Part shown: piece by piece, positions 12,079 to 51,956 of the stretch | How positions within the stretch are numbered: the stretch's first letter is position 1 | Layout of the letters: every line of letters starts with the position of its first letter | Assembly: GCA_041661305.1 (NCBI GenBank) | Contig: JBAZUR010000001.1 | Span: 234,101 to 298,100 of the forward strand | Direction: 5' to 3' | From: Minisyncoccota bacterium | GTDB taxonomy: Bacteria > Patescibacteriota > Minisyncoccia > Phycocordibacterales > VMEP01 | DNA length: 64,000 bases | Translations under genes and position numbers: made by a program | The notes under the pieces: model-generated | The model's database searches: none | What the model saw: only the letters and a program-made list of their open reading frames with translations | Told to the model about the DNA's origin: nothing

Positions 12079-12342
12079 ATGGCGACCGAGCCGTTTCACC
12101 AGAAGCTTGCCGAGCAAATTTTTTCGAAAATGACTGCGGATCACGTAACGTCGTTTGACGAAAACGTCTTCTACAAAGACCTTTACCGTCTTTTGCAACG
12201 AAACAACGCATTCGACGGAAAGGGTTACCACGGGCGAAAAATCAAACCGCTCGTGATGAAGATGTACGAAGGATACAAGGTTCCTCTCAAAGCGCCGACT
12301 GAAGCGCCCGTGCAAGAGAGCCTCGACCTCTTCGCTACGTAA
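12079..12342 (+). CDS. Hypothetical protein (87 aa) in a GC-rich island
   Basis: GGAGGA Shine-Dalgarno 6 nt upstream of the ATG. The ORF is about 50% GC versus about 38% in flanking DNA. It is followed by terminator GCGCCCCATCATGGGGCGCTATTTTTTT. Confidence 0.5.
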   Translation: MATEPFHQKLAEQIFSKMTADHVTSFDENVFYKDLYRLLQRNNAFDGKGYHGRKIKPLVMKMYEGYKVPLKAPTEAPVQESLDLFAT

Positions 12343-12414: not shown

Positions 12415-12464
12415 CAACACATACACTATAATCTTGCTATAGCAAGATTATAGTGTATGTGTTG
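12415..12464. repeat. Perfect 50-bp palindrome (23-bp arms, TATA centre)
   Basis: CAACACATACACTATAATCTTGC-TATA-GCAAGATTATAGTGTATGTGTTG has exact reverse-complement arms. Confidence 0.9.
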
Positions 12465-12539: not shown

Positions 12540-12695
12540 CTATTTCCAGCTCTCAAAGGAGTCGGTTTCGACCATCATGGGTACTTGATCCGGCTCAACT
12601 TCGGTCAGAGCCAGCGTGTCTTCTTCGAGAAGGTCGGCGATGAACTCCTCAACTGCCTGGGCAAAATTACCCCAGAGATTCTTCAAAAACTTCAT
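12540..12695 (-). CDS. Small acidic hypothetical protein (51 aa)
   Basis: MKFLKNLWGNFAQAVEEFIADLLEEDTLALTEVEPDQVPMMVETDSFESWK. GGGGGAGG Shine-Dalgarno 6-8 nt upstream. A TTCCCA-17-TATTAT promoter-like element lies upstream. A downstream hairpin GCCACCCATATCGGGTGGC plus T-run follows on the minus strand. GC-rich. Confidence 0.4.
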   Translation of the reverse strand: MKFLKNLWGNFAQAVEEFIADLLEEDTLALTEVEPDQVPMMVETDSFESWK

Positions 12696-12825
12696 GGCTG
12701 TTTCCTCCCCCGATAAGTTGAACAAAACTACCTCATTTATAATACCACGAGAGTTGAGGGATGGGAAGAGTGGAAAAATGCGCATCAAACCCCAACACCC
12801 CAAAGCTCTATGATATAATTTTTTT

Positions 12826-13699: not shown

Positions 13700-13850
13700 A
13701 CAGAGAACCGCGAGTACGCTTCGGTCACGGATAAATTTTTGCTAAAATTTTCCGCTACCCCGACTCGCGCCGTCACGCTCCGTCTTTCGATTCTCTGACG
13801 CGAGTAAAGTGATTTACTCGCTTAGGGTCGCAAAAATTGGGCTTTGCTAA
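13700..13850 (-). repeat. tRNA-Glu-proximal copy of the AGCA-loop repeat family, with an additional partial fragment at 13621-13665
   Basis: In minus orientation: CAGAGAATCGAAAGACGGAGCGTGACGGCGCGAGTCGGGGTAGCGG, then the hairpin AAAATTTT-AGCA-AAAATTT, then TATCCGTGACC...CGGTTCTCTG. The outer stem CAGAGAA/TTCTCTG resembles the tRNA-Glu T-stem. This copy is close to the one at 40760-40850. Confidence 0.6.
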
Positions 13851-13928: not shown

Positions 13929-14034
13929 TCTTTAAAACAAAATACCAAAAAATCATAGCAATTTAAGAGGAAATTTACAATTCAAAAATGATGAAGCCCG
14001 CATTCCTGCGGGCTTTGGTCTGAGGTGAGTTGGC

Positions 14035-14232
14035 CTAGCGGGGAAAGATGATTTCCCAGATATCCCTGTAGGTTGTGGCAATCTTTTCGTTGATCCCCAG
14101 CAGATCGCCATAAATACAGGCAATTGCTATGACCACGATGATCGCGACAATGACCAGCGTTATTTCACCACTCCTGACATCCTGAAAGCGCTTGACGGCT
14201 TCCTCTCCAGGATACAAGTCATTTCCTCCCAT
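14035..14232 (-). CDS. Small single-TM hypothetical protein (65 aa)
   Basis: AAGGAGGAA Shine-Dalgarno 4 nt before the internal ATG (MGGNDLYPGEEAVKRF...). Hydrophobic core LVIVAIIVVIAIACIYG. Followed on the minus strand by terminator AAAGCCCGCAGGAATGCGGGCTT plus T-run. Confidence 0.4.
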   Translation of the reverse strand: MGGNDLYPGEEAVKRFQDVRSGEITLVIVAIIVVIAIACIYGDLLGINEKIATTYRDIWEIIFPR

Positions 14233-17758: not shown

Positions 17759-18727
17759 TTAAATTTTTTCGAGGATTCTCAATTTGGCACTGCGGGCTCT
17801 TGGATTTTCTTTTGTCTCTTCGTCAGTCGCAATCAATGGTCTTTTTGTAATAATTTTTGCGACACCTTCTTTTGCTTTCTCTTGAAAATATCTCTTCACG
17901 ATTCTGTCTTCGATACTATGAAATGAGATGACGGCCATTCTTCCACTTGCGTTGAGAGCCTCAAATGCCTTTGGTAGCGCATCGTTTAAGGCTCCTACCT
18001 CATCATTCACCGCCATTCGAATTCCCTGAAAAGTACGTGTTGCCGGATGAATCTTTTGTTTCTTTCTTGCGCCGTAAGGAATCGCTTGCTCAATGATTGT
18101 GGAAAGTTCGGTAGTGCTTGTGATTGGACGTGCTTCCCTGTTTTCGATAATCGCTTTGGCAATTCGTCTGGCAAATTTTTCTTCACCGTATGACGAGATG
18201 ATTAGCGTTAGTGTCTCTTCACTCCAACTATTCACTACATCAAGCGCCGTAACCTCTTCTGGTTTTGGCTCTTCGGCAAATGTCATCACTAGTGGTTCAT
18301 CTTGCCTAAAACTGAATCCTCTTCCCGATATTTCTATCTGAGGAGAACTTAGCCCAAGATCAAACAACACTGCATCGATTTTTTCCACGTTCGCATCTTT
18401 CAGTACTAAGTCGAGATTTCGAAAGTTTGTATTAAAAAATTTTATCTCGCCCTTAAAACCAAAATCAGAAAGTGTTGCTTTTGCGCGCGTGATTGCGGCA
18501 CTATCAGCATCAATGCCAATTAGTGTGCCCTTTGCTCCAATCTTTTCTGCAATTGCTTTCGTGTGACCACCAACACCAAGTGTTGCGTCAAGTGCGACAG
18601 CTCCTGCTTTTAGACTGAGACCTTCTATTGCTTCTTGTAAAAGAACTGATACATGTGAGCCCTTAGCTTCGCCCTCTTTTAGCTTATTAGGTTCAGATGG
18701 AGCACCTTTTAATATTTTCTTTTCCAT
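17759..18727 (-). CDS. rsmH: 16S rRNA (cytosine1402-N4)-methyltransferase RsmH (MraW)
   Basis: 322 aa. DATLGVGGHT SAM-binding motif and the FSFRQDEPL family signature. Confidence 0.9.
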   Translation of the reverse strand: MEKKILKGAPSEPNKLKEGEAKGSHVSVLLQEAIEGLSLKAGAVALDATLGVGGHTKAIAEKIGAKGTLIGIDADSAAITRAKATLSDFGFKGEIKFFNTNFRNLDLVLKDANVEKIDAVLFDLGLSSPQIEISGRGFSFRQDEPLVMTFAEEPKPEEVTALDVVNSWSEETLTLIISSYGEEKFARRIAKAIIENREARPITSTTELSTIIEQAIPYGARKKQKIHPATRTFQGIRMAVNDEVGALNDALPKAFEALNASGRMAVISFHSIEDRIVKRYFQEKAKEGVAKIITKRPLIATDEETKENPRARSAKLRILEKI

Positions 18728-18766
18728 GTTTTCCTAATCAGCTAACAGCTAGTTCCTAACAAGCTG

Positions 18767-19222
18767 TTATATTGCCCCTATCTCACCTAACTTCTCTGCC
18801 ATCAAATCTGCCTGCTTACCGATATTTGCTTTGTATTCACCCCAAAGCTTTTCGTTCCAAATCTCGATGCGTCCATAAACGCCCGCGATGACGACCTTGC
18901 TCTTGAGCTCTGCGAAATCTTTTAATGCATCGGGAATCAAAACTCTTCCCAATGAATCAACGTCTGTCTCAAACGCGCTCGAAAGCATAAAACGAGAGAA
19001 GCCACGCATATCTCCTCGTCCTAGTGGTAGCTCGGAAAGTTTATCCGCAAGCTTTTCCCACTGAGGCATGGTGTACACGAAAAGACACTTATCCAGTCCG
19101 TTCGTTATTACCACTTTCTTCCCCACCTCTTTTCTGAACTTGGCGGGCAAAGAAACTCTTTTTTTATCATCCAACGTGTGGACGTATTCCCCTATAAGCA
19201 TGGCTTTTAATTTCGTACCCAT
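18767..19222 (-). CDS. mraZ: Transcriptional regulator MraZ
   Basis: 151 aa. Duplicated MraZ halves (LDDKKRVSLPAKFR and LDSLGRVLIP). Confidence 0.85.
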   Translation of the reverse strand: MGTKLKAMLIGEYVHTLDDKKRVSLPAKFRKEVGKKVVITNGLDKCLFVYTMPQWEKLADKLSELPLGRGDMRGFSRFMLSSAFETDVDSLGRVLIPDALKDFAELKSKVVIAGVYGRIEIWNEKLWGEYKANIGKQADLMAEKLGEIGAI

Positions 19223-19295
19223 CGTTTCCGTTAAATGGCTAAAAACAGAAGCGATGTGGATAAAGTGGGCTAGCTAAAAATTTTCCACTTCATAC

Positions 19296-19312
19296 CACTG
19301 CATACCATTATA
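19296..19312 (-). promoter_or_regulatory. Putative mraZ (dcw) promoter -10 element
   Basis: Minus-strand GGGGTATAATGG, with TATAAT at 19305-19310, about 80 nt upstream of the mraZ ATG. Confidence 0.4.
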
Positions 19313-19416
19313 CCCCACCAGCTACCACTACATAGCAAAGTTATCCACAAAATTACACCAGGAAATAACTTCCATTAAAAGGCAATGGCGCTTCGTTTTT
19401 ATCCTTATGTACAAAC

Positions 19417-19466
19417 AAAAAACCACCCTAGCATTTACGCCAAGGTGGTTTTTTGTTGATAATATA
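19417..19466. terminator. Bidirectional rho-independent terminator
   Basis: AAAAAACCACCCTAGCATTTACGCCAAGGTGGTTTTTTG, with an A-run before and a T-run after. Confidence 0.7.
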
Positions 19467-19786
19467 TTTCCCTAAAATCGCCGGTCTTAAAAGATGAGTG
19501 ATCTTGGGGAAATTATTTGATTTACGCTAAATCAACAGCCTCTGTGGTTTCTTCTGTTGAAGAAGCTTCAGCAACTGTACCTTCGTCTGCAACAACGACA
19601 GTTTCTGTCGTCTCTTCTGTTCCTTCGTTTAAAATAACATCCATAGTAGTTTTTCTAAAAGGTTATCCTGACAATAAAATCCCGATTCGACTGCGTTATA
19701 TTAACACGAAAAAATAAAACACGCAAGTAGGTATTTAGAGGCTTCGCCTCCAAGTGGTTATTTTCTTTTCTAATTAACTAAAATCT

Positions 19787-20446
19787 CTATTTATCGAGCG
19801 TCCAATAATCACCCCTTCCAACAATTTCTAACCTAGAGCCATCTATTTTAATTGCTGTCTCATCGTCGGTGGCATACACTAAAACATTAAACCTTGTTTT
19901 CTCTATATTATTTAAAAATTCTTTTCTTACGTGTTTAAACCACTCAGAATTAAGGTGTGGTATAAAAGCAAAATCATACAATCCCATTGGAGTTCCCTCT
20001 TCGCCACCATAGTCCTCTTCTGGAAATATTTCACTATTTAAATCTTCTGACAAAAAGTGCCCAGCAACCATGCTCCCTGCGCTTATTCCCATGTACACTT
20101 TTGTATTAAGTAACGGTAAAAGAAATTCTCTTATTTTATTTTCTTTAATTATTCTCGATAGATATTTTTCATTTCCTCCACCAAAGCAAATTATGTCTGC
20201 CGCCAAAAAGTGAGGTTCCCAAACCCCTGCCGGTAAAGCAACGTCGATGATGTCAATTGATTTAAAACTATATTTCTGAAAATCTTTTAAATTTTCTATA
20301 ACCCAACCCTTATCATCTATTCCAGGGTTTGCTGCTGTTGGGACAAAAAGAATAGATACTTCTGCTAGTGGTTTACCAACAAGCTCTTCGAGAGCTTTTG
20401 CTATGTGCTCATTTTTTAACCCACTAGAGGTAAGTAATAATCTCAT
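19787..20446 (-). CDS. Peptidase E-like S51 family peptidase
   Basis: 219 aa. Class I glutamine amidotransferase-like fold signature with catalytic Ser in GISAGSMV. Confidence 0.7.
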   Translation of the reverse strand: MRLLLTSSGLKNEHIAKALEELVGKPLAEVSILFVPTAANPGIDDKGWVIENLKDFQKYSFKSIDIIDVALPAGVWEPHFLAADIICFGGGNEKYLSRIIKENKIREFLLPLLNTKVYMGISAGSMVAGHFLSEDLNSEIFPEEDYGGEEGTPMGLYDFAFIPHLNSEWFKHVRKEFLNNIEKTRFNVLVYATDDETAIKIDGSRLEIVGRGDYWTLDK

Positions 20447-20454
20447 TTATTGTT

Positions 20455-21924
20455 TTATTCTCTCGGTCGCATCGTTGGGAACAAAATAACCTCTTTAATA
20501 TTTTTCGTATTTGTCAGAATCATTACTAGTCTATCAATTCCAATTCCAACTCCAGCAGCTGGTGGCATTCCGTATTCCATTGACTCAAGGTAGCTCTCGT
20601 CCGATGGAGAAACTTCCCCTTCTCCAGCACGCTTCTTTTTGTCTTGTTCAACATATCTTTCACGCTGGTCACTTGGATCGTTGAGCTCAGAAAAAGCATT
20701 AACAACTTCAAATCCTCCGACAACAAGTTGGAATCTATCAATAAAATTCTGATTGTCTTCTTTTCGTTTTGCGAAAGGAGAAAATTCTACAGGATAATCA
20801 ACAATGAATGTTGGTTGAATTAGTTTTGGTCGACAGGTTTTTTTATAAATATTGTCGATAATTTTTTCTTTTGCGTCCGAAGGAGCAACATCAATACCAA
20901 GTTGTTTTGCTTTTAAGGATAATTCATCTTTTGTTGCCACTATCAAATCAGGGATAAGGGCGTGTCGCTTTAGCAAATCAGAATAAGAAATAACACTGAA
21001 TGGTTTTCCGAAATCAATTATTTCTTCCCCGTGTTCTACTTGCCCTTTCTTCACAACTTTCTTTGCAACGCGTCTTACAAGCGCTTCAACAAACTTCATC
21101 GCCTTCTTGGCATCACTATATGCCTCATAAAATTCAAGCATCGTAAACTCGGGGTTATGAGTGACATCAATCCCCTCGTTTCTAAAATTACGCCCAAGTT
21201 CAAAAACTTTTCTGAACCCTCCAACCAAAAGTTGTTTCAAATATAGTTCTGGCGCGATACGCAAAAACAAATCAATATCTAGCGCATTGTGGTGAGTTGA
21301 AAAAGGCTCGGCGGTTGCTCCGCCTGCAAGTGGTTGGAGAAGTGGTGTTTCTACCTCAAGAAATCCATTCTCATTAAGCGCTAGACGAATTTCACTTATA
21401 ACCGTTGAGCGAACAATAAAACGATCACGAATTTCTGGTGCCATTAATGTGTCGAGATAACGACGACGGAATCTTTCCTCAACATCCTGTAATCCATGCC
21501 ACTTGTCAGGAAGCGGACGTAAACTCTTTGAAAGCATTCTCCAGTTGGTGACAAGAATTGTTTTTTCTTTTCGTTTCGTTACAAATAAATTTCCAGATAC
21601 TTCGACAAAATCTCCTATATCAACAGTATCTCTAAAAAGCTCAAAGACTGCGTCTTCTATTTCTCCCTTTTTAAGAAGCCCCTGAAACACTCCTGTGCCG
21701 TCGTTTAAATCAAAAAATATTAGCGCACCCTGTCCCCGCACAGACATAATACGCCCAACCAAAGACAATGGTTTCTTGCGCTTGGATAATTTAGAAAATT
21801 GAGTAACCGCCTCAAGAAGTGTGGCATCTACGTTTGAAACGATTGGGTAAGGCAAAACGCCCATCTCCTTCAAGACCGCGAGCTTTTTTAACCTTTCGTT
21901 TCGAATCTCTTCAAGTGAAGCCAT
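20455..21924 (-). CDS. lysS: Lysyl-tRNA synthetase (class II)
   Basis: 489 aa. OB-fold anticodon-binding N-domain, class II motifs 1-3 (FRNEG, GGxxxGxGIDR). Confidence 0.9.
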   Translation of the reverse strand: MASLEEIRNERLKKLAVLKEMGVLPYPIVSNVDATLLEAVTQFSKLSKRKKPLSLVGRIMSVRGQGALIFFDLNDGTGVFQGLLKKGEIEDAVFELFRDTVDIGDFVEVSGNLFVTKRKEKTILVTNWRMLSKSLRPLPDKWHGLQDVEERFRRRYLDTLMAPEIRDRFIVRSTVISEIRLALNENGFLEVETPLLQPLAGGATAEPFSTHHNALDIDLFLRIAPELYLKQLLVGGFRKVFELGRNFRNEGIDVTHNPEFTMLEFYEAYSDAKKAMKFVEALVRRVAKKVVKKGQVEHGEEIIDFGKPFSVISYSDLLKRHALIPDLIVATKDELSLKAKQLGIDVAPSDAKEKIIDNIYKKTCRPKLIQPTFIVDYPVEFSPFAKRKEDNQNFIDRFQLVVGGFEVVNAFSELNDPSDQRERYVEQDKKKRAGEGEVSPSDESYLESMEYGMPPAAGVGIGIDRLVMILTNTKNIKEVILFPTMRPRE

Positions 21925-22089
21925 AATTGGCCAATTATACCGTTTTTAATAAAAAAACGAAAATCATAATGATTTTTTTATAATTATTTATTATTAAGCT
22001 TTTGCATTAAAAAACACACATGTCCGCCCCTGCTGTAAAAGTCGCGCGTCAATGGACGGTCGTGCGACATGATTTCGCCTAAATCATAT

Positions 22090-22220
22090 TCTCGTGCCAC
22101 GCATAATTTCTTGCTAGAAATTAGCTCGGCCCCGACTCGCCTCGTCAGGCTCCGTCTCTCAATTGCTTCACATATCGCAATTGAGCGTCGCACTGCGCAA
22201 TGTTTTTTGAGGGGTATTTT
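22090..22220 (-). repeat. Copy C of the AGCA-loop repeat family (a longer variant)
   Basis: In minus orientation: AAAATACCCCTCAAAAAACATTGCGCAGTGCGACG, then an inserted hairpin CTCAATTGC..GCAATTGAG, then GACGGAGCCTGACGAGGCGAGTCGGGGCCGAGC, then the hairpin TAATTTCT-AGCA-AGAAATTA, then TATGCGTGGCACGAG. Confidence 0.6.
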
Positions 22221-22294
22221 GGTGATATTGAATTCAAAAATACAACTCGCTTGGATTTTAGGAAAACACAGATGAGCCTGCTACAATTTAATAT

Positions 22295-22698: not shown

Positions 22699-22788
22699 GA
22701 GATACTATAGAAAGACATTGCGCAGTGCGACGGCACGAGCATAGCAAAAACTTAGCAAAGTTTTATGTGTGTCTTTCGATAGTATCTC
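22699..22788 (+). repeat. Copy B of the AGCA-loop repeat family
   Basis: Outer stem GAGATACTATAGAAAGACA / TGTGTCTTTCGATAGTATCTC. Core CATTGCGCAGTGCGACGGCACGAGCATAG identical to copy A. Inner hairpin AAAACTT-AGCA-AAGTTTT, which is compensatory relative to copy A. It is flanked by the direct repeats GTATCTCGAAAAAAA at 22663-22677 and 22779-22793. Confidence 0.7.
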
Positions 22789-22798
22789 GAAAAAAATC

Positions 22799-28458: not shown

Positions 28459-28581
28459 AGTGCTATCTTACACTACTTTTTTAAGAAAAAGAAAAAATTG
28501 ACAAAACGAGGTAAATGACGTAAAGTTCGAAACAGAAATAATCTAGCTGGTTCTGTCACAAAACTGAATAAGGAGAATATC

Positions 28582-29037
28582 TTGACCAAACTTGACTTTA
28601 AGATACTGGCAATACTAACCACCATCGCTCTGTTTATTGGTGCGATGATTGCAACCGCCACCGAAAGCAAAACGCTTTTGTTTCTGGTAATAACCGCTTT
28701 CGTCACCTTTTGGGTAGGCGTAGCGTGGGCGTCTTTTCTGACCGAGCGTGGAATGCGGGAAAAATTCAGCCACCCACTCCCGCTCATCGACGAAGACGGG
28801 AACCTTCATCTTTTCATGAAGGTCGGGGGCTACTACAAAGTTCTCGCGTGTCTGAACTCTCACCGTGAAGCCGGAGAACATCTGTACGTACTTCGTGCAA
28901 CAAGTGGCGGTGAGGACGGCAAGGTTTTACTCGCATGGGCAGAAGAACGTCTCAATCTACCAACCAATTTCCAGGTCGTCAAAATGACCGAACAGCGTGG
29001 GGAGAGAATACGGATAACGTCCTTCGTCTTCGAGTAA
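28582..29037 (+). CDS. Hypothetical protein with an N-terminal 2-TM anchor and a cytoplasmic domain, in a GC-rich island
   Basis: AGGAGA Shine-Dalgarno 5 nt upstream of a TTG start. About 50% GC. Followed by terminator AATCGCCCGCTATATGCGGGCGATTTTT at 29053-29086. Confidence 0.5.
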   Translation: MTKLDFKILAILTTIALFIGAMIATATESKTLLFLVITAFVTFWVGVAWASFLTERGMREKFSHPLPLIDEDGNLHLFMKVGGYYKVLACLNSHREAGEHLYVLRATSGGEDGKVLLAWAEERLNLPTNFQVVKMTEQRGERIRITSFVFE

Positions 29038-29084
29038 GTTCCGCCAGTTTTTCAATCGCCCGCTATATGCGGGCGATTTTTCAT

Positions 29085-30188
29085 TTACCCAATCAATCTT
29101 GCAATATCGTGATACGTCACAACGAGCATCAAAATAATCAAAATTGCAAAACCGATAAGATTAACAGTATTGGCTACTATCGGTTTTATTGGCGAACCCT
29201 TAATCCATTCGATAATCACAAAAAAGAATCGTCCGCCGTCTAACGCTGGAAATGGAAGAAGGTTCAAGATTGCAAGGTTAACAGAAATCAAAGCGGTAAA
29301 AGAAAGCAAGTAAGCAAAACCAAACTTACTTGCCTCCCCTACCATCCCAACAATTCCAACCGGACCAGTGAGTGACGATATTTCAGATTTACCATTAAAC
29401 ATTCCACCAACCAAATCCCCGAGCGATGCGATAGTAAGATACGAAAGTGAACCTGTCGTCTTGAGCCCTTGCCAAATAGCTTCAGTTGGCGAGAGTTTTA
29501 TAATTCCAATTTCATCAATAACAACACCAACAGCATAAGTGCCACCAGGAACACTAGCAGGAGTAACAGAAATGTCGTTTGTCACACCGGCACGAGAAAA
29601 ACTAATATCAATAGACTCGCCCTTATGCTCCTGAACAAACTTTCTAAAATTATCTGGTTTTAATTGTGCTAATTTTTCCGCCTCAACTTCAACAGATAAG
29701 ATTTGATCCCCTGCTTCCAGCCCTGCCACATTCGCAGGAGAACCTTTTGAAACATCGAGCACCACCAATTTTGTATCACGTAAGCCTTCGGCAAATACTG
29801 ACTGGGCGGATGTTGGCAACCCAACCATATAGCTTGTGGAAAAAAGTACCCACGCCAAAAGGGCGTTAAAAAATATACCGGCAAGCAAAACTCCGCTTTG
29901 AACCCACTTTGGCTGAGCACCAAAACTTCGTGACAAGTCCTCCTTACTTTCTTTCACCTCGTCTTCAAATTCTGCCGGATTCTCACCAAAAATTTTAACG
30001 AAACCTCCAAACGGCAAAAGATTTAGGCTGTATTGTGTTTCTCCTCTCTTCCACGAAAAAATCTTTGGAGGAAAACCAATAGCAAATTCATCAACGCGAA
30101 TTTTTGCCCATTTTGCTGTTATAAAATGCCCAAACTCATGCACCAAAATGAGGACGAAAAGAATTATAAGAAAAAGAATAATTGACAT
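29085..30188 (-). CDS. rseP: RIP metalloprotease RseP (site-2 protease, M50)
   Basis: 367 aa. HEFGHF zinc motif, PDZ domain, LDGG motif. Confidence 0.85.
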   Translation of the reverse strand: MSIILFLIILFVLILVHEFGHFITAKWAKIRVDEFAIGFPPKIFSWKRGETQYSLNLLPFGGFVKIFGENPAEFEDEVKESKEDLSRSFGAQPKWVQSGVLLAGIFFNALLAWVLFSTSYMVGLPTSAQSVFAEGLRDTKLVVLDVSKGSPANVAGLEAGDQILSVEVEAEKLAQLKPDNFRKFVQEHKGESIDISFSRAGVTNDISVTPASVPGGTYAVGVVIDEIGIIKLSPTEAIWQGLKTTGSLSYLTIASLGDLVGGMFNGKSEISSLTGPVGIVGMVGEASKFGFAYLLSFTALISVNLAILNLLPFPALDGGRFFFVIIEWIKGSPIKPIVANTVNLIGFAILIILMLVVTYHDIARLIG

Positions 30189-33948: not shown

Positions 33949-35865
33949 ATGCAGATTAGCCTCGTGACCGTTATGCCAATCGGAAAAAGCGTCTTCAAAG
34001 AACGCTTGTCTTATTTTTCGGTTGAAAACTTACCACTTGGCTCGGTTGTTAATGTCCCCCTCCGAGGACGAAGTATTCCTGCACTCGTTGTTTTGGTTGA
34101 AAGTGCAGAGGATAGTAAGGCAAAAATACGAGCTGCTTCCTTTGCAATAAAGAAAATAGAAAACGGAAAACCACGTCAACTTTTCTCGTCTGCCTTTATC
34201 GCCGCGGCCGACGAAGCGGCAGAATATTTCGCGGCACCAGCTGGCGCAATCATTGAACTATTTTCACCAAAAGCAATTCTTGAAGAAAGCGCCACCGCCG
34301 GAGAAGTAATTTCTGTTCCAAGAAAAGAACGCCCAATAACAGCAGAACAATTTGTTTTTCAGTCTGACGAGGAAGAACGACTCGTTACTTATCGTAGTTT
34401 ATTTAGAGAAGAGTTCGCCCGAGGGTTTTCCCTTTTTCTTTGCCTTCCAACCATAGAAGACGTAGAACGTTATACAACTCTCTTAGCCAAAGGCATTGAA
34501 GGATATGTCGTCACCCTACACAGCGAACTCTCAAAAAAAGAAATGGTTAGTCGTTGGCAAAGAATTGCTTCCGATACTCATCCACTTTTAATAATTGGAA
34601 CTAGTACATTCCTATCAGTTCCTCGAAATGACATTTCGACGTTTATCGTCGAGAAAGAATCGAGCAATGCTTATCGTCGTATGGGGCGTCCACACGTTGA
34701 CGCCCGCACGTTTGCCGAATTTTTGGCTAAAAAAAGTGGGGCTAGACTTATTTTTGGAGACACAATTCTTCGCGCCGAAACCCTCTACCGCCATGATGAG
34801 CACGAGTTCCCAGAATGGCGCCCCGTAAAATTACGCCTTCGCGCGCAAGCTGAAACAGTTGTTATTGATATGAAAAAAGAGCTTGAAAAGGCGTCTCCCA
34901 AAAAAACATACCCAATAATAAGTGAGCGCCTTGTTAACGAAATAAGGGAAACGATAGAACGTAACGGAAATATTTTCGTTTTTGCTGGACGACGTGGACT
35001 TGCTCCAGTAACCGTCTGCGAAGACTGCGGGGAAACTCTTATGTGTGGGCACTGCACAAGTCCTATGGTTCTTCACGAAGAAGGATCTCTCCGTTTTTAT
35101 CTTTGTCATCAATGTGGAAAGAAAATAATTTTAGGAAAACAAACCGAAGACTTGTGTCGCAATTGCGGAAGCTGGCGAATGAAACCACTTGGTACCGGAA
35201 GTGGTCGTATTGAAAGCGAACTTGAAAAAAAGTTTCCACGCTTAAACATTGTTCGCCTCGATAGCGATGTCGCTAAAACCCGAAAATCAATCACTAAGGC
35301 TATTAAAGAATTCTACGGCTCGAAAGCAACTCTGCTTATCGGAACAGAACTTGCCCTTCCGTACCTCACAGAAGAAATTGACTGTGTTGCGGCCGTCGGT
35401 ATTGATTCTCTTTTTACAATTCCAGATTTTCGAATAGAAGAACGGGTATTCCAAACACTCTCATACTTAAAAACACGAGCACGAAGAATATTTATTATTC
35501 AAACAAGGGACAAAGACAGAGAACTATTAAGCGATGTTTCAAAAGGAGACCTAGTGGGCTTCTACAGACGTGAACTTGCTGAAAGAAAACAATTTGGCTA
35601 TCCGCCTTTCGCTAAGCTTCTCAAAATCACCTACCGTGGAAAACGCGACGAGGCCGAGCGCGAAATGGCGCGACTTCACAACTATCTTCGAGTTGATCAA
35701 TTCCCAATTTTCCCCGCTTTTATACCAGAAGTTAAAAAGGAGTACCGCCTACATGGCCTACTTTCTTTCGAACCAAAACAGTGGCCCCGCAAAGATCTTA
35801 TCGAAAAGCTAAAGAGTCTCCCACTTCAATTTGATATTGAAGTCGATCCTGAAACAATTTTATAA
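33949..35865 (+). CDS. priA: Primosomal protein N' (PriA)-like protein with degenerate Walker A and DExH motifs
   Basis: PriA architecture, including the C-terminal Cys4 zinc ribbons (CEDCGETLMCGHC, CHQCGKK, CRNCGS) and C-terminal domain. Where GVTGSGKTEVY is expected it reads QSDEEERLVTY, and where DEEHD is expected it reads VEKESSNAY. Confidence 0.8.
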   Translation: MQISLVTVMPIGKSVFKERLSYFSVENLPLGSVVNVPLRGRSIPALVVLVESAEDSKAKIRAASFAIKKIENGKPRQLFSSAFIAAADEAAEYFAAPAGAIIELFSPKAILEESATAGEVISVPRKERPITAEQFVFQSDEEERLVTYRSLFREEFARGFSLFLCLPTIEDVERYTTLLAKGIEGYVVTLHSELSKKEMVSRWQRIASDTHPLLIIGTSTFLSVPRNDISTFIVEKESSNAYRRMGRPHVDARTFAEFLAKKSGARLIFGDTILRAETLYRHDEHEFPEWRPVKLRLRAQAETVVIDMKKELEKASPKKTYPIISERLVNEIRETIERNGNIFVFAGRRGLAPVTVCEDCGETLMCGHCTSPMVLHEEGSLRFYLCHQCGKKIILGKQTEDLCRNCGSWRMKPLGTGSGRIESELEKKFPRLNIVRLDSDVAKTRKSITKAIKEFYGSKATLLIGTELALPYLTEEIDCVAAVGIDSLFTIPDFRIEERVFQTLSYLKTRARRIFIIQTRDKDRELLSDVSKGDLVGFYRRELAERKQFGYPPFAKLLKITYRGKRDEAEREMARLHNYLRVDQFPIFPAFIPEVKKEYRLHGLLSFEPKQWPRKDLIEKLKSLPLQFDIEVDPETIL

Positions 35866-35867
35866 AA

Positions 35868-35900
35868 AAATAAAGGGCCCATCTTGCGACGAGCCCTTTT
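35868..35900. terminator. Bidirectional terminator between priA-like (+) and the 35916 gene (-)
   Basis: AAAAAAATAAAGGGCCCATCTTGCGACGAGCCCTTTTG. Confidence 0.65.
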
Positions 35901-35915
35901 GAGCACCACGTGTTG

Positions 35916-36404
35916 TCAAGCGGTACAGATAACACTCATTTCCACCATCCGCCCAAGCGGAATGTCGTCCGATGAACACTCGGAAACGGGGTCAATGATT
36001 TCGACGAAACCTCGGCCGTCGTCAGGGTCACCTTCGTAGCCGGTAATTTTGAACGACACCTGAACTCCGTTGTTCAAAGTGAATTCACAACTGTCGTTGA
36101 GTTCGCCGCGGATAAAGCTCGGAATCTTCAGCGCCATCTGTAAACCGCGAATTTCCTTTTCCGCGATAATCTTTGCCGTGTCGTTGGTGAACCGGAGGTA
36201 CCCCAACTCGTCGCCCCTACAGTGAAACGCGAGTTGTTGTATTCCGTTCCCAATGGGCGCGTCGTCGGGAAAACTTTCCCAATGTGACACCTCTCGTGCT
36301 CCGATATCGCACAGATCCAAAAAGGTCTCGGTCAAGAGGGCGTGTTGGGTCAGGAAAACGTAGAAAAACAGGTGGTTGTTTCGCGCAAGCGCGTTTTTGT
36401 CCAT
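35916..36404 (-). CDS. Hypothetical protein (162 aa) in a GC-rich island
   Basis: AAGGAG Shine-Dalgarno 7 nt upstream. About 50% GC. Cys-containing acidic protein with no recognised domain. Bounded by the bidirectional terminator. Confidence 0.5.
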   Translation of the reverse strand: MDKNALARNNHLFFYVFLTQHALLTETFLDLCDIGAREVSHWESFPDDAPIGNGIQQLAFHCRGDELGYLRFTNDTAKIIAEKEIRGLQMALKIPSFIRGELNDSCEFTLNNGVQVSFKITGYEGDPDDGRGFVEIIDPVSECSSDDIPLGRMVEMSVICTA

Positions 36405-36551
36405 GTGTACACTCCTTATATAGTGGACGGTTTTAAACTACAGGAGAACTTTAGGCTGTTGCCACGCTACCACCCATAATCAAATACGTCAACGATACGC
36501 AATTTACCAGCACTACGTAGTGTTTTCAAAAATCATACGTATAATTAACAA

Positions 36552-37112: not shown

Positions 37113-37965
37113 TATTCCGTTTGTATTTTTTGGAACACCAGAATTTGCGGTGTCCATTTTAGAAGAACTCAAAAACGCCAAAATTGTGCCTTCTCTTATT
37201 GTCACGGCCCCCGACAAACCAAAAGGCCGTGGACTTATCCTCACCCCACCACCTGTAAAGATTTGGGCACAAGCGCACAACATCCCAGCTGTACAACCAG
37301 CAAAACTCGACAATGACTTTACTAATAAACTAAAAAATAGTTCCTACAATCTGTTCGTCGTTGCCGCTTATGGGAAAATAATTCCTAAAACAATTTTGGA
37401 TATTCCAACTAATGGAACACTCAACGTCCATCCATCACTCCTACCAAAATATAGAGGTGCCTCCCCTATTCAATCCCAAATACTTGCTGATGAAAAAGAA
37501 GTTGGGATCACAATCATGCTCATCGACGAAGAAATGGATCACGGCCCAATATTAGATATTAAAAAAATAGGAACTGAAGAAAGCACAACAGCTCCAGAAC
37601 TAGAAAATCTTTTAGCTCACGAGGGAGGGAAACTTCTTTCTGTTGTTATTCCAAAATGGATTGCAGGGGAAATAAAACCAAAGGAACAAAACCACAACGA
37701 AGCAACCTTCACAAAAAAAATAACAAAAGAAAATGGTTTAATTGTTTTGTCTGACGACCAACACAAAAATTATTTAAAATACAGAGCTTTAACACCGTGG
37801 CCGGGCGCTTATTTTTTTGCAACAAAAAATGGAAAAAAATTAAGGGTATCTATTAAAAAAGCTGAACTAATTGAAGGTAAACTAGTAGTAAAACAAGTTG
37901 TTCCAGAAGGTGGAAAAGTAATGAACTTTGATGATTTCTTGCGCGGAGACGTTGTGATAGAATAG
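37096..37965 (+). CDS. fmt: Methionyl-tRNA formyltransferase
   Basis: 289 aa. N-terminal formyltransferase domain (SLLPKYRGASPIQ) and C-terminal domain. Overlaps the def stop, as in def-fmt operons. Confidence 0.9.
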   Translation: MKTMNNIPFVFFGTPEFAVSILEELKNAKIVPSLIVTAPDKPKGRGLILTPPPVKIWAQAHNIPAVQPAKLDNDFTNKLKNSSYNLFVVAAYGKIIPKTILDIPTNGTLNVHPSLLPKYRGASPIQSQILADEKEVGITIMLIDEEMDHGPILDIKKIGTEESTTAPELENLLAHEGGKLLSVVIPKWIAGEIKPKEQNHNEATFTKKITKENGLIVLSDDQHKNYLKYRALTPWPGAYFFATKNGKKLRVSIKKAELIEGKLVVKQVVPEGGKVMNFDDFLRGDVVIE

Positions 37966-38012
37966 AAATTGGCAAGGCAGTTCCTATCAACAAAACAGCA
38001 GGAGATTAAAAA

Positions 38013-38603
38013 ATGAAAGCGACCGGAGCCGGGGTAAGACCGGGCCAAGGCAGTGCTCAAGCACCACTCGAGGTAGCGCCAACGCGGAAAGGACCGCGCC
38101 CGCCACAAATCGTTGTGGTCGCAAGAGTTCCAGGTGAGCTGAAGTCAGAAGGTGTCCGTATGGTTGGAGCCTACCAACCACTCCTTCTCGATAACGCAAA
38201 CCAAGAGCATGGTGGCGACGCATTTCGTCTTTTTTGTACAAGTGCTTCCTATAAGGTTGAGGACGAGGTCGAAATCTCGGGACAAGTCCGGATCCTCACC
38301 GCAAACGGAAGCAACGGCACCGCAGCTGAGATTATTGGGATCCAGATTTCTGGCTTCCTCAAGACGCTCGGCAAAGCAGTGGCCAAAATGCCGGGAAAGG
38401 AAACTGACCTAGCGACAAACGGCGAGCCACTACCTGTTCCCCGGGGGATTTTACCGGGAGAGTTGATTGCACTAATTCACGAAATGAACGCAGTCGTCGT
38501 CGGCAAAAAAGAATCCGAACTACTTTTGGCTCTTGCGAAAAGCGACCTGGGGAAAACCCGCCTGGACATACGGAAGGATGTCCTCGAATATCCCCCGCAA
38601 TAG
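38013..38603 (+). CDS. Hypothetical protein (196 aa) in a GC-rich island
   Basis: AGGAG Shine-Dalgarno 8 nt upstream. About 55% GC. Followed by terminator GAAGCCCGCGTTCACGCGGGCTTTTC at 38626-38652. No recognisable domain. Confidence 0.5.
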   Translation: MKATGAGVRPGQGSAQAPLEVAPTRKGPRPPQIVVVARVPGELKSEGVRMVGAYQPLLLDNANQEHGGDAFRLFCTSASYKVEDEVEISGQVRILTANGSNGTAAEIIGIQISGFLKTLGKAVAKMPGKETDLATNGEPLPVPRGILPGELIALIHEMNAVVVGKKESELLLALAKSDLGKTRLDIRKDVLEYPPQ

Positions 38604-38669
38604 CCGGTTCCCTTCAAGGAAACCAGAAGCCCGCGTTCACGCGGGCTTTTCTAATGGGTCAGATTTTTA

Positions 38670-40715: not shown

Positions 40716-40759
40716 TTGTTGCAACTCCGAGAGAGCAAGTGGCTTAAGCCACTTGCGTG

Positions 40760-40850
40760 CAGGATTCGAAAGCCGGAGCGCGACGGCGCGAGGCGGGGTC
40801 GCAGAATTTTTCAGCAGAAAAATATCTGTGACCGGACTGTCTCCGGAGCA
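40760..40850 (+). repeat. tRNA-Asn-proximal copy of the AGCA-loop repeat family
   Basis: GGATTCGAAAGCCGGAGCGCGACGGCGCGAGGCGGGGTCGCAG, then the hairpin AATTTTTC-AGCA-GAAAAAT, then ATCTGTGACCGGACTGTCTCCGGAG. The outer stem CCGGAG/CTCCGG reuses the tRNA-Asn acceptor sequence and ends with an exact 12-nt copy of the tRNA 3' end. Confidence 0.6.
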
Positions 40851-41984: not shown

Positions 41985-42485
41985 ATGCGTTTTACACAAG
42001 GGTGTACGCGCTTGGTCATCCTCACGGAGACCATCGCGATCAAAATTGCTTTGCCATTTCGGCCATTTATTCCTTTTATAATCGTCATCCAGGCAATTTT
42101 AAGAGGTGACCTCAAGAGAAAACTGGAAAAACATAACGGAAACCTGCTTAAGGTACTGGTTCGCTGTATGACCATTGCTGGTATTGACGCAAATCGTCGT
42201 GAGATGCGGATTTCCACAATGTACCCAGAATACCCAATTGCTCGCGTACTTCGCTCTTATCTTTGGGGTTTTGTAATCGTTATGACCAAAGGAGAGCAGA
42301 TTGCGGAATCTCTTGAGCCTTGGGTTATCAACCAACTGTCGCTTCCCGACCATCTCCAGAAATCTGATCTGTTCAAGAATGACAACACTTGTTGTATCGA
42401 CGGGAGGTTCCACTTCGTTGATTACGGCGATCCATCCGCTGACGAAGTCCTACCTTTACTCTTCGGCACCCGGAGCACCAACTAG
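41985..42485 (+). CDS. Hypothetical protein (166 aa) in a GC-rich segment
   Basis: Higher-GC ORF followed by the hairpin AGCCATTTCGCGCAAGCAAGTGGCT plus a T8 run at about 42486-42520. No recognisable domain. Confidence 0.4.
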   Translation: MRFTQGCTRLVILTETIAIKIALPFRPFIPFIIVIQAILRGDLKRKLEKHNGNLLKVLVRCMTIAGIDANRREMRISTMYPEYPIARVLRSYLWGFVIVMTKGEQIAESLEPWVINQLSLPDHLQKSDLFKNDNTCCIDGRFHFVDYGDPSADEVLPLLFGTRSTN

Positions 42486-42567
42486 AGCCATTTCGCGCAA
42501 GCAAGTGGCTCTGTTTTTTTTCATTTTTATCCGCACTAAAACTGACTATGATATAGTTATCAAAATT

Positions 42568-44848: not shown

Positions 44849-45589
44849 ATGATTACTAAAAAGTACTACAAAAAGAAGGCAAAAAAGCCACTCCCTAAGT
44901 CGGTAAAAAACCCCGACCTTATTCGTATTAATAAGTACATAAGAGACAAGGGGCTAGCCTCTCGAAAAGAAGCCGACAAGCTGATAGAAAAAGGTTTTGT
45001 CTTGGTCAATGGTAAACGAGCCGAAATGGGTATGCTAGTTGGAGCAAAAGACAAAGTAACCCTCAAGGAAAGCGGAGCGCAGAAAAAAACCTGCCTTGCC
45101 TATTACAAACCACGTGGACTGGCGACACAAACATCAACCGACGCCCCTTCGGTTATCGATGAGTGGCAAAAGAAAGGGCTATTTCCCGTCGGTCGCCTTG
45201 ATAAAGAATCAGAAGGCTTACTCCTCCTAACAGACGACGGGCGTATCACAACCTCAATTCTTGGAGCTGACTCAAAGCTAGACAAAGAATACACTGTTAA
45301 GGTTCGCGAAAAATTACGCCCGGGAATAATTGCTATTTTTGCAAAAGGAATGGAAACCAAAACATTTGGAAAACTCCTTCCCGCAAAAGCGAGAATCTTG
45401 GACGAACACGTTCTTTCAATCACAATCCACGAAGGAAAGCGTCACCAAATTAGAATCATGCTCGACGAGTTAAATTACACAGTCACATCCCTAAAGCGTA
45501 TTCGTATCGGTAAAATTTCTCTTGGAGCCTTGCGTCCCAACAACACTCGAGCATTGCGTGATTCTGAAATTGAAGAACTCCTAAAATAG
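44849..45589 (+). CDS. rRNA pseudouridine synthase (RsuA/RluB family) with an S4 domain
   Basis: 246 aa. S4 RNA-binding motif (RINKYIRDKGLASRKEADKLIEKGFVLVNGK) and catalytic VGRLDKESEGLLLLTDDG. Confidence 0.8.
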   Translation: MITKKYYKKKAKKPLPKSVKNPDLIRINKYIRDKGLASRKEADKLIEKGFVLVNGKRAEMGMLVGAKDKVTLKESGAQKKTCLAYYKPRGLATQTSTDAPSVIDEWQKKGLFPVGRLDKESEGLLLLTDDGRITTSILGADSKLDKEYTVKVREKLRPGIIAIFAKGMETKTFGKLLPAKARILDEHVLSITIHEGKRHQIRIMLDELNYTVTSLKRIRIGKISLGALRPNNTRALRDSEIEELLK

Positions 45590-46690
45590 ATGGTCTTCAA
45601 CAATTTTACTTTCTAGTTTTTCCGCTCGCACTCCAAGTAGCCTTATTTTCTTTTTTTGCGGATTTTCCTGCCTATCAAGAAAAGGAATCACTAGAGCAAG
45701 AATTGTTTGTTCAAGCTCTCTTGCTGTCTTAAAGATTTTCTTCGAAGTGAAAGAGCGTGTCTTTGTTTCAAAATCAGCAAACCTCACAGTCAGTACAACG
45801 GTACGGAAACCAACAAACCCCTCTAATTTAATTTTCTCAAACACATCAACACAAAGTGTGTTGATTTTTTTCATAACAAATTTCAAATCGAGTGTATCAA
45901 TCTCGAATGTCTCTTGCTCACCGCACGACTTCGCAATATCTGGCTCAGAAACAACATCGGAGTCGTCAACGCCGAGTAATTTCTGAAAAAGGTCGCTCCC
46001 CCATTTGCCGAACATTGAAACTAGCTTATCTTCCGAGAGTAAACGAGCCTCTTTGATGGTTTTAATTTTATTCGCACTAAAAACATCTAACGTTTTTGGA
46101 CCAACTCCAGAAATTACTGAAACTGATTTGCTAGCCAAAAAATCTGCAGACTGCTCTGGCAAAACCACGGTTAAGCCGTCGGGCTTCTCTTCTTGTGCAG
46201 CAATCTTAGAGAGCATCTTATTTGAAGCAATGCCAACAGAACAGGTAAGCCCCTCCTCTCTCTTTATCTCATCTTTTATTTTTTGAACAATTTTCTCAGC
46301 CTTCTTAAAACTACCGGCCATTGAAATATCAAAATATGCCTCGTCAATGCTTGCCTCTTCCACTAATGGCGTATATTTTCTCAAAATCGCCATAACTCTA
46401 TGAGAACTTTCAACATACTTATGAAATGCTGGTGTGATAAACACCACCCCCTGGTCCCCTCTTTTTTTTGCTTCTTCGGAAAATCGCCATGCTTTTGATA
46501 TTGGCAAAGCTGAATGAATTCCATATCTCCTCGCTTCATAGCTTGCTGTTGAAACAACACCTCGTCCGCTTCCACCTTTTGGGTCAGCACCAATAACAAT
46601 CGGCATTCCTTTCAAATATGGTTTATCGCGCACTTCAACAGAAGCGAAGAAGGCATCCATATCAAGGTGGGCAATAATACGCTCGTTCAT
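45581..46690 (-). CDS. dinB: DNA polymerase IV (Y-family)
   Basis: 369 aa. HLDMDAFFASVE, SIDEAYFD, and the little-finger domain. Confidence 0.9.
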   Translation of the reverse strand: MNERIIAHLDMDAFFASVEVRDKPYLKGMPIVIGADPKGGSGRGVVSTASYEARRYGIHSALPISKAWRFSEEAKKRGDQGVVFITPAFHKYVESSHRVMAILRKYTPLVEEASIDEAYFDISMAGSFKKAEKIVQKIKDEIKREEGLTCSVGIASNKMLSKIAAQEEKPDGLTVVLPEQSADFLASKSVSVISGVGPKTLDVFSANKIKTIKEARLLSEDKLVSMFGKWGSDLFQKLLGVDDSDVVSEPDIAKSCGEQETFEIDTLDLKFVMKKINTLCVDVFEKIKLEGFVGFRTVVLTVRFADFETKTRSFTSKKIFKTARELEQTILALVIPFLDRQENPQKKKIRLLGVRAEKLESKIVEDHLF

Positions 46691-46767: not shown

Positions 46768-46980
46768 CTACATTCCCATTCCGTCTCCTTCGCTACACAT
46801 TTTGCAGTTACCACGGTGTGTGACCAATTCATACACAGCGGCCAAACCGACCAAAATGTAAACAACTTGAGCTACTGTCGAACCAAGCAATTCCACAACA
46901 TTATAACCAAACGCTACAAGCAACCAATTCAAACCTCCCACGACGAGAAGGATGAAGGAAGCCATGTGGAGCCATTTCAT
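46768..46980 (-). CDS. DUF378 family small membrane protein
   Basis: 70 aa. VVGGLNWLLVAFGYN matches the DUF378 GxNWxLVG motif. Confidence 0.55.
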   Translation of the reverse strand: MKWLHMASFILLVVGGLNWLLVAFGYNVVELLGSTVAQVVYILVGLAAVYELVTHRGNCKMCSEGDGMGM

Positions 46981-47250: not shown

Positions 47251-47529
47251 ATGGCAAAGAAATTGTATGTCGGAGGTATTCCTTATACTTCTACAGCCGA
47301 TGCTTTGAAGAATTTCTTCCAAGCTGCTGGCCCGGTTGCATCGTCAACCATTATTACTGATAAGATGACCGGCCGCTCACGCGGATTTGGATTCGTCGAA
47401 ATGGAGAACGACGCTGACGCAGATCGCGCAGTTGAACAGTTCCATGGAAAAGAATTCGAAGGACGAACTCTTACAGTTAATGAGGCTAAGCCCCGCGAGG
47501 AAGGAGCCAATCGAGAGCGCCGCTTCTAA
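47251..47529 (+). CDS. RNA-binding protein with an RRM domain (glycine-poor)
   Basis: 92 aa. RNP-2 LYVGGI and RNP-1 RGFGFVEM. Confidence 0.8.
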   Translation: MAKKLYVGGIPYTSTADALKNFFQAAGPVASSTIITDKMTGRSRGFGFVEMENDADADRAVEQFHGKEFEGRTLTVNEAKPREEGANRERRF

Positions 47530-47630: not shown

Positions 47631-47717
47631 TTTTTCCCTTAAAAAACGCGCATATCCGCCTGCTGGCGGATTGCTATGCTCGTATCGCCATACTGCGCAA
47701 TGTTTTTTAAGGGAAAA
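47631..47717 (-). repeat. Copy D of the AGCA-loop repeat family
   Basis: In minus orientation: TTTTCCCTTAAAAAACATTGCGCAGTATGGCGATACGAGCATAG, then the hairpin ATCCGCC-AGCA-GGCGGAT (GC-rich stem, same AGCA loop), then ATGCGCG, then the outer stem partner TTTTTTAAGGGAAA. Confidence 0.7.
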
Positions 47718-47792
47718 ATCTAGAGTTTTTAAGAAAAAAATTATACGTGTTTTAAAAAAGCAAAAATAAAAAATTGTTGATATAATTCACCT

Positions 47793-51846: not shown

Positions 51847-51956
51847 AAATATCGGGCAATTATGACATATTTTGTTGTTGTTGACAACTCACTCATATTG
51901 CGGTTAAATCAGTGAAGTTCGCTAGTCCTATCAACAAAACAGAGGAGTTCTCGTTA

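Follow-up and report, generated by a model that had tools for sequence, protein, structure and literature searches.

How did short, GC-rich, self-contained genes come to stand among the housekeeping genes of a bacterium, and are they recent arrivals? The question is raised by a 64,000-nt stretch of DNA (the window) from a metagenome-assembled genome of Candidatus Paceibacterota, within the candidate phyla radiation (CPR), and in particular by the locus at 28582-29086 on the + strand, whose open reading frame (ORF; 28582-29037) is 100% identical to WC724_01580. A preliminary description of the window had flagged this ORF together with five others, which we name by their start coordinates (c28582, c35916, c38013, c41985, c51957 and c14035), and had interpreted them as acquired accessory genes, possibly from a donor of higher GC content. 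We arrive at a different answer. The units formed by these ORFs and their expression signals are probably old, clade-restricted and dispensable orphan genes for small proteins, which occupy fixed intergenic sites, are kept by purifying selection and are not recent imports.

All six flagged ORFs are annotated as hypothetical proteins and, as had been noted before, they contain no recognisable domain: none was found in Pfam, NCBIfam or PADLOC, and the only hit was one weak PHROG match, for c41985. Their neighbours are housekeeping genes, encoding a class-II aminoacyl-tRNA synthetase (aaRS), RseP, RRF, HolB, MreB, MurA, Def, Fmt, a PPIase, HPF, the Suf proteins, DnaB, DnaG, sigma-70, RpoB/C and the ribosomal proteins L27, L9 and L21. 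The GC content of the window as a whole is 0.41. At third codon positions, GC content (GC3) reaches 0.51-0.63 in the six ORFs (z = 4.1-7.1), compared to 0.339±0.041, with a maximum of 0.49, in a core reference set of 44 window ORFs of at least 150 aa each. At first and second positions it is barely raised (0.49-0.58, or 0.67 in c38013, and 0.27-0.44 in the units, compared to 0.525 and 0.357 in the core), and the compositional signal is therefore mainly synonymous. It arises chiefly from C-ending codons, with third-position C increasing from 0.17 in the core to 0.33 in the units, and codon choice is shifted accordingly: CTG makes up 28% of leucine codons in the units but 2% in the core, and CGG 23% of arginine codons compared to 2%. 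RpoB stands at 0/102 for CTG and 0/81 for CGG, and the genes for L27, L9 and L21 (GC3 0.35-0.41) together contain one CTG and zero CGG codons.

The units also differ from the core in their expression signals. The calculated anti-Shine-Dalgarno (anti-SD) duplex energy averages -9.2 kcal/mol for the six units, compared to a median of 0.0 kcal/mol for the 59 other genes (Mann-Whitney p = 1.3e-4), which supports the earlier remark that housekeeping genes here mostly lack a strong SD. A strong SD precedes only 3-4 core genes, including fmt and an FeS-assembly gene (both operon-internal), while leaderless-type starts, in which 4-13 nt separate the end of a TATAAT-like box from the start codon, were seen in 14 of the 38 core genes with an upstream gap. 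Each flagged unit, as read from the sequence, has its own TTGACA-type -35 element, a -10 box, a leader of 45-70 nt and a GC hairpin followed by a T-run. The unit leaders show no significant fold (z = -0.3 to +1.5), ruling out SD-sequestering hairpins or thermometer-like leaders. On the side of the core, many first genes of operons have a TATAAT box that ends 6-13 nt before ATG and no SD (for example at 36531-36551, 47772-47792 and 12805-12825), so that transcripts without a leader seem to be the rule in this Paceibacterota genome; our literature search found no paper naming both Parcubacteria and leaderless.

A scan of the window conducted independently of the earlier list, in which we collected SD-led ORFs of at least 40 aa outside typical genes and set aside an internal start in the DUF378 gene, returned 10 units, all with a GC3 of 0.51-0.64. 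These comprise the six flagged ORFs and, in addition, 12079-12342 (+), 12540-12695 (-), 54333-54575 (+) and 54700-54942 (+). The self-contained GC-rich small-ORF units with a strong SD are thus confirmed in all six cases, and they form a distinct compositional and architectural class. The pattern is genuine, lies well outside what chance would give and has more members than first reported. Three core genes, those for MraZ, DUF378 and an RRM protein (18767-19222, 46768-46980 and 47251-47529), have an intermediate GC3 of 0.43-0.49, with little CTG or CGG and no strong SD before the annotated start; the latter two also have a very low synonymous divergence (dS). A high GC3 is thus not enough to assign a gene to the class.

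The terminators had been described as private to the units and possibly imported with them, and neither view holds. Hairpins of the same CCGC..GCGG type follow core genes at 2447, 8837, 19415, 46711, 47543 and 49174, with the L27, RecR/L21, RRM and FeS-assembly genes among those served, and the terminators of c35916, c38013 and c51957 are bidirectional, each also serving a convergent core gene. An imported origin or a mutual relationship of the terminators was rejected on these grounds, since the hairpins are of the generic type of the genome.

At the focal locus, 28582-29086 constitutes, with its upstream signals, a complete monocistronic unit of sigma-70-type promoter, unstructured leader of ~50 nt, AAGGAG, ORF and intrinsic terminator. 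The promoter (28498-28526, +) consists of a -35 TTGACA (28498-28503), a 17-nt spacer and a -10 TAAAGT (28521-28526), stands back-to-back with the promoter, itself of leaderless type, that belongs to the divergent aaRS gene, and is nearly invariant in the related loci L005, L009, L010 and L188. From the inferred transcription start, the 5' leader (28533-28581, +) spans ~49 nt and carries the SD AAGGAG (28570-28575), with 6 nt between it and the start codon; its duplex energy is -8.2 kcal/mol and the leader fold is not significant (z = +0.45). AAGGAG is kept in every c28582 ortholog despite ~50% divergence of the N-terminal coding part. The ORF (28582-29037, +; GC 0.50, GC3 0.55) encodes 151 aa from a TTG start, which is ATG in relatives. 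It is followed by a terminator at 29056-29084 (+; TCGCCCGC-TATAT-GCGGGCGA plus T5, -16.5 kcal/mol) that abuts the stop codon of convergent rseP (29085-30188, -) and displays compensating stem changes in L009 and L010 (GCCGGCCGC..GCGGCCGGC). Since the same arrangement is found in four independent assemblies, the locus is not an assembly chimera. The product would be a small membrane protein, with predicted transmembrane (TM) helices at aa 6-26 and 30-61 followed by five strands in a β-rich C-terminal domain of ~90 aa. Lysine and arginine residues before the first helix and after the second suggest, from the distribution of charge, that both termini are cytoplasmic. Comparison of an AF2 model built with four sequences (pLDDT 62) to known folds gave no match.

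The age of the units is indicated by where their relatives lie. A search of 5.8 billion proteins yielded three homolog clusters for c28582 (73%, 65% and 48% identity), all of them in the slot between the aaRS gene and rseP, and searching 1.84 billion representatives with a profile brought up 8 matches, 7 of which are small proteins of the same architecture, about five of these additional. The families are tiny, with 4 clusters at 90% identity and ~7 representative clusters in the case of c28582 and 10 clusters in that of c35916. Outside the narrow clade, neither c28582 nor c35916 had a homolog among the 5.8 billion proteins, nor c28582 among the 1.84 billion representatives. Same-slot orthologs of c28582 occur in L005, L009, L010 and L188. 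L188 has a pair of tandem paralogs there, both equipped with the promoter, and its contig (L183) carries core proteins that share 69-98% identity with those of the window, with dS >1. Likewise, c35916, for which nine homolog clusters reach down to 52% identity in the larger protein set, is found in its usual slot, with 65% identity, in L183 and L185, which are more distant and whose core proteins share 70-98% identity with those of the window at a dS of 1.1-2.8. All relatives in which the site is covered, L183 and L185 included, have an ortholog of c38013, at 80-95% amino acid identity, and the overlap between its -10 box and the fmt stop codon is conserved. For c41985 (in L190) and c14035 (in L191), the same sites are occupied in strains that have diverged by ~10-13% at the nucleotide level. 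The c51957 protein is identical in the sister strain L103, its only known relative.

Where a unit is missing, the traces can be informative. In L095 (~89% identical), the c28582 ORF is absent and the aaRS gene and rseP are adjacent, but the gap retains the TTGACA-17-GATAGT promoter (GATAGT in place of TAAAGT in the window), the start of the leader and the 3' end of the terminator, and we therefore conclude that c28582 was deleted there and was not primarily absent. The c35916 unit is missing in the 95%-identical L005-7, where ~30 nt take the place of ~650 nt at a junction without repeats, and is missing in L095 as well; in both L005 and L095, the 638-aa ORF directly neighbours def. For c51957, a SufS metagenome scan recovered one close locus (L103), and other loci, at no more than 59% identity, served as distant outgroups only; in these, the sufD-sufS gap is ~10-70 nt, and this tight junction indicates that c51957 was inserted sometime in the history of the lineage.

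The properties that set the units apart are inherited with them. Promoters, SD sequences at fixed spacing and terminators with compensatory stem changes are kept in orthologs, and a GC3 of 0.50-0.61 together with CTG and CGG use persists, compared to 0.27-0.39 in core orthologs. SD hexamers remain fixed at constant spacing while the surrounding leader diverges, which argues that the lineage keeps its anti-SD; the SD sites would be functional, and SD pairing would still be in use. Ratios of nonsynonymous to synonymous divergence (dN/dS) are 0.08-0.19 for c38013, 0.16-0.19 for c35916, 0.14 for c41985, 0.07 for c14035 and 0.23-0.55 for c28582, demonstrating that these five are real protein genes, of which the focal one is the least constrained.

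Recent import of cassettes from a higher-GC donor such as a host, carrying their own SD and terminators into intergenic sites, would explain the atypical GC3 and codon usage, the use of SD and the self-contained build, and it would sit well with the presence and absence of c28582 and c35916 among 88-95% identical strains, with c51957 splitting an otherwise tight sufD-sufS junction, and with the proximity of two units to tRNA genes (c14035 ~100 nt from tRNA-Glu; c41985 in a variable region, 1.3 kb from tRNA-Asn, whose 12-nt 3' end is repeated). It is difficult to reconcile, however, with same-slot orthologs of c28582, c35916 and c38013 in relatives whose core dS is saturated, with the deletion scar in L095 and the conserved overlap of the c38013 -10 box with the fmt stop codon, or with generic terminators, three of them common to core genes. 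Flanking repeats or target-site duplications were not found at the c35916 indel, nor a mobility signature at c28582 or c38013. No donor or mobile-element homolog was detected in the databases searched: tblastn against phages and plasmids gave no relative for any of the six units, IMG/VR and BFVD gave none either, and the negative for c38013, c41985, c51957 and c14035 rests on the phage and plasmid tblastn and not on the large protein databases. Recent import is already largely refuted for c28582, c35916 and c38013, and we regard it as very unlikely overall. The proposed distinct class of acquired accessory genes thus stands as distinct and, given the loss of c28582 and c35916 in strains, dispensable, but not as recently acquired; the proposed higher-GC or host donor and the targeting to intergenic sites found no support. 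Indeed, small ORFs conserved across the lineage without evidence of horizontal transfer, the outcome named in the preliminary description as speaking against import, are largely what we observed, even if the units cannot be counted as core genes. The same signals might instead mark native, very highly expressed genes, with GC3, expression signals and low dS all resulting from translational selection. Near-consensus -35 boxes, strong SD sequences and strong terminators agree with this, as does the low dS of the mildly GC3-enriched RRM (0.05) and DUF378 (0.12) genes. Yet in L27, L9, L21, RRF and RpoB, GC3 is 0.29-0.41 and both CTG and CGG are practically absent, and since the codon choice of the units is opposite to that of ribosomal-protein genes, simple translational optimisation fails; c28582 and c35916, moreover, are lost outright in some strains, and high expression is an improbable explanation. 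That the ORFs are spurious, representing non-coding RNA or structural DNA in which few stop codons leave long ORFs, is extremely improbable. Both strands of GC-rich sequence do contain long ORFs, the ORF of c51957 is short and its one known relative identical, and GC-rich MITE-like repeats (resembling miniature inverted-repeat transposable elements) exist in the window. Against this stand dN/dS values of 0.07-0.19, in-frame indels, start codons and SD at fixed spacing, amino acid motifs of the c28582 family that are kept down to 22% identity, unstructured leaders, and the absence of any Rfam family over the GC-rich segments, only two tRNAs having been found. For five of the six units, c51957 being excepted, this view is already refuted.

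That the ancestor of the clade acquired the units long ago, in one or more events, from a GC-richer source that relies on SD (for example a phage or plasmid of CPR not yet sampled), and that they have since been inherited, ameliorating slowly and spreading between strains by homologous recombination, is a possibility that we take seriously while considering it rather unlikely. The foreign-like codon and SD use of the units leaves room for it, and this is the first of several observations that weigh against the reading we prefer. Third-position changes in c35916 show an excess of GC-to-AT over AT-to-GC (27 vs 11) that fits slow amelioration, with GC3 among its orthologs ranging from 0.63 down to 0.53; parsimony polarisation is biased by saturation, the core showing a spurious AT-to-GC excess, and provides a hint only. 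In three units dS lies 2-10x below that of the flanks (c38013, 0.26 vs 0.39-0.92; c41985, 0.13 vs 0.27-0.73; c14035, 0.10 vs 1.03), which could mean later strain-to-strain spread by recombination and not long vertical residence. Mosaic tracts shared with the sister strain L005, which is 99.9% identical over 18481-22035 (3.5 kb) and ~95% elsewhere, and the weak match of c41985 to phrog_4301 (E = 3e-5) can be added on this side. Furthermore, all known relatives of c41985, c51957 and c14035 come from 90% clusters or close strains, the case for c51957 as a coding sequence depends on one sister strain with an identical protein, and the anti-SD is missing in about half of Parcubacteria (Tsurumaki et al. 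2022, PMC9297842). What speaks against ancient acquisition is that no donor, phage or plasmid relative was found, that ten unrelated genes with one architecture would require a common source or convergence, and that c38013 shows balanced changes (24 GC-to-AT vs 23 AT-to-GC), a stable GC3 and no sharp recombination tract in its identity profile, its 5' half including the leader being very conserved. These patterns do not separate two accounts, one in which selection maintains the composition and another in which an ancient import is decaying slowly and has later passed between strains. Within the reading of the units as old resident genes, the atypical composition would be maintained rather than decaying. 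Near-zero dS was also seen in MreB2 and RRF, and together with the 99.9% stretch it points to recent recombination tracts between co-occurring strains.

Recombination may also have shaped the focal gene itself. Compared to its counterpart in a 95%-identical strain, the C-terminal 89 codons of c28582 are 99% identical at the nucleotide level, whereas the N-terminal 62 codons are only 48% identical (34% at the amino acid level), and the nearest match to the N-terminal TM module is paralog A of L188, a distant relative (47% amino acid identity). The combination of a divergent N-terminal with a near-identical C-terminal module identifies the focal allele as a chimera of two old module types, a mosaic of the kind that tandem paralogs or alleles would yield by recombining. 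In L009, an extra 145-aa ORF (L009 3438-3875) lies beside the c28582 homolog. The duplication in L188, the deletion in L095, this extra ORF and the mosaic together show the slot to be evolutionarily restless, and sequence comparison depicts the c28582 family as tiny, fast-evolving, duplicating and recombining. Other strains carry different small accessory genes in intergenic slots of the same backbone, including an AT-rich 201-aa membrane ORF between sufB and sufD (L103 4478-5083), a ParE-like toxin pair between holB and frr (L185 11758-12301) and AbiEii adjoining tRNA-Asn (L183 1-1640). The slots are therefore general hot spots, and their occupants are not all GC-rich.

We propose that each unit is transcribed alone from a sigma-70 promoter, that its translation presumably starts by SD pairing, and that the terminators would insulate the units, three of them also serving the convergent core gene. 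On this reading, two gene classes coexist in the genome, one made up of SD-led, leadered and GC3-rich units that use CTG and CGG, the other of an AT3-rich and mostly leaderless or SD-less core, with the units inherited in place across the clade and now and then deleted, duplicated or recombined. Our guess is that the units encode strain-variable envelope or conflict-related small proteins, because two of them are membrane proteins and the focal family evolves fast, duplicates, gets lost and shuffles modules. A bolder and, in our judgement, unlikely extension is that the two classes represent two stable expression regimes, a leaderless or SD-less core free of CUG and CGG and an orphan set that is SD-dependent, GC3-rich and dependent on the rare codons CUG and CGG, with its composition under selection, for which low dS and a GC3 that stays stable over saturated divergence would speak. 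If so, the state of the ribosome or the supply of rare tRNAs could switch the accessory set together, for example upon host contact or stress, and a 17-nt leader element common to c38013 and c51957 would be part of this co-regulation.

The units resemble several known systems without matching any of them. Phage morons, a concept that reportedly comes from the lambdoid-phage literature of Juhala and Hendrix, are comparable in that one ORF, flanked by a promoter and a factor-independent terminator of its own, differs in composition from its neighbours and lies between genes that are adjacent in relatives (here the aaRS gene and rseP, the 638-aa ORF and def, and sufD and sufS, with the adjacency in L095 resulting from deletion). 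Unlike morons, the units reside in a cellular housekeeping backbone, have no phage homologs that we could find and retain synteny over long divergence. They are not integron cassettes either, since their 3' hairpins are short GC stems with T-runs as after core genes and not attC sites, they have their own promoters at separate loci, and no integrase is present among the annotated genes; in a repeat analysis of the window, no shared repeat family linked the units. Atypical composition and codon usage are also seen in recently transferred islets, from which the units differ by their same-slot orthologs in L183, L185 and L188, where core dS is >1. Taxonomically restricted genes (ORFans) are usually AT-richer than their genome. 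The units are best filed among such taxonomically restricted or atypical genes, and with ORFans and the 'atypical' genes of GeneMarkS-2 (PMC6028130), they share short length, clade restriction, odd composition, fast evolution and dispensability; they depart from ORFans in being GC-richer than the genome, in a uniform expression architecture opposite to that of the core, and in a composition that is stable across orthologs. In Mycobacterium, the leadered/leaderless split likewise assigns two initiation modes to different gene sets (PMC4633059, PMC3898074), whereas here the SD-led minority consists of orphan, GC3-rich, rare-codon genes and is known from sequence alone. The core of this genome is almost SD-free, as in anti-SD-reduced Parcubacteria (Tsurumaki et al. 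2022, PMC9297842), but the conserved SD before the orphan units, fmt and the FeS-assembly gene would imply that SD pairing has been retained.

The remaining units share the layout of the focal one. The c35916 unit (35863-36492, -) comprises a -35 TTGACG (36487-36492), a -10 TAGCGT (36464-36469), the SD AAGGAG (~36412-36417), a 162-aa ORF (35916-36404, GC3 0.63) and a bidirectional terminator (35863-35899) common to the convergent 648-aa ORF. In the c38013 unit (37958-38654, +), an extended -10 (TGTGATAGAAT) includes the TAGAAT at 37958-37963 that overlaps the fmt stop codon, and is followed by the leader with a 17-mer at 37982-37998 and the SD AGGAG at 38000-38004, a 196-aa ORF (38013-38603, GC 0.54) and a bidirectional terminator (38615-38654) common to the PPIase gene. 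The 17-mer, TCCTATCAACAAAACAG, recurs identically at 51926-51942, so that the leaders of two unrelated units, c38013 and c51957, carry it directly upstream of the SD; the element is kept in L005 and L095, carries 3 substitutions in L183 and L185, and has a looser version, GTTCTGTCACAAAACTG, in the c28582 leader. The units might have in it a common regulatory element or enhancer of translation. Its 7 matches in IMG/VR all lack an SD or ATG context and are therefore chance matches, and relaxed searches for the leader motif within the window gave nothing significant.

Downstream of tRNA-Asn, in a region that is variable among relatives, c41985 (41985-42521, +) consists of the SD AGGAGG, a 166-aa ORF (41985-42485, GC3 0.51) and a terminator (42483-42521). 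No match to Pfam or PDB sequences was found for its product, in which ETIAIKIA, SDLFKNDN and FVDYGD may resemble the VAIK-, D.K..N- and DYG-like motifs of protein kinases. The last 12 nt of tRNA-Asn (CTGTCTCCGGAG) are repeated at 40837, 172 nt farther downstream, with a second terminator. The c51957 unit (51926-52226, +), with the SD GAGGAG, a 72-aa ORF (51957-52175, GC3 0.63) and a bidirectional terminator (52194-52226), had been reported as antisense inside the suf operon; it does lie on the opposite strand, in the 374-nt sufD-sufS spacer, but overlaps no suf ORF. SufD (52221-52940) is itself short, with 239 aa, a TTG start and a 32-nt overlap with sufB, where L103 has an extra 906 nt in between. 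Between a murein ligase gene and tRNA-Glu, c14035 (13996-14232, -) combines the SD AAGGAGG with a 65-aa single-TM ORF (14035-14232, GC3 0.59) and a hairpin (13996-14013, GCCCGC..GCGGGC). As for the additional members, 12079-12342 (+, 87 aa) and 12540-12695 (-, 51 aa) are convergent and SD-led, with a GC3 of 0.62-0.63 and their own terminators, between which lies a perfect 42-nt AT-rich palindrome (12421-12462; ACATACACTATAATCTTGCTA and TAGCAAGATTATAGTGTATGT). The tandem pair at 54333-54998 (+) encodes paralogous 80-aa products (54333-54575 and 54700-54942), again SD-led and with their own terminators (GC3 0.53-0.57); the window has two copies, through a 367-nt duplication, and L103 has one.

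Two families of intergenic repeats were also noted. A GC-rich repeat of ~90-120 nt with the core CATTGCGCAGTGCGACGGCACGAGCATAG occurs at 4280-4420, 22186-22240, 22711-22797 and 47642-47707, and further copies are found at L005 12258-12372 and L183 11735-11852; relatives carry it between holB and frr, where the window does not, which suggests a MITE-like mobile element. The second family, of ~85 nt and 78-81% identity, is located at 13722-13805, 22098-22164 and 40751-40834, with two copies just 3' of tRNA-Glu and tRNA-Asn. Finally, a DinB/Pol IV gene at 45581-46690 has typical composition (GC3 0.35), and its best relatives among species-representative genomes, 51-55% identical and without synteny, include Deltaproteobacteria, Nitrospira and CPR; it may be an old transfer.

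Genomes of CPR bacteria, or Patescibacteria, abound in small hypothetical proteins of obscure origin and role. Our analysis describes a subclass of these that is recognisable from sequence alone, by high GC3, CTG and CGG codons and an SD in a nearly SD-free genome, and it raises the question of why an atypical composition and low synonymous divergence persist where the core shuns those codons. Such a signature offers a simple route to candidate lineage-specific envelope or interaction genes in Paceibacterota, and it cautions that atypical composition should not be read as recent horizontal transfer.

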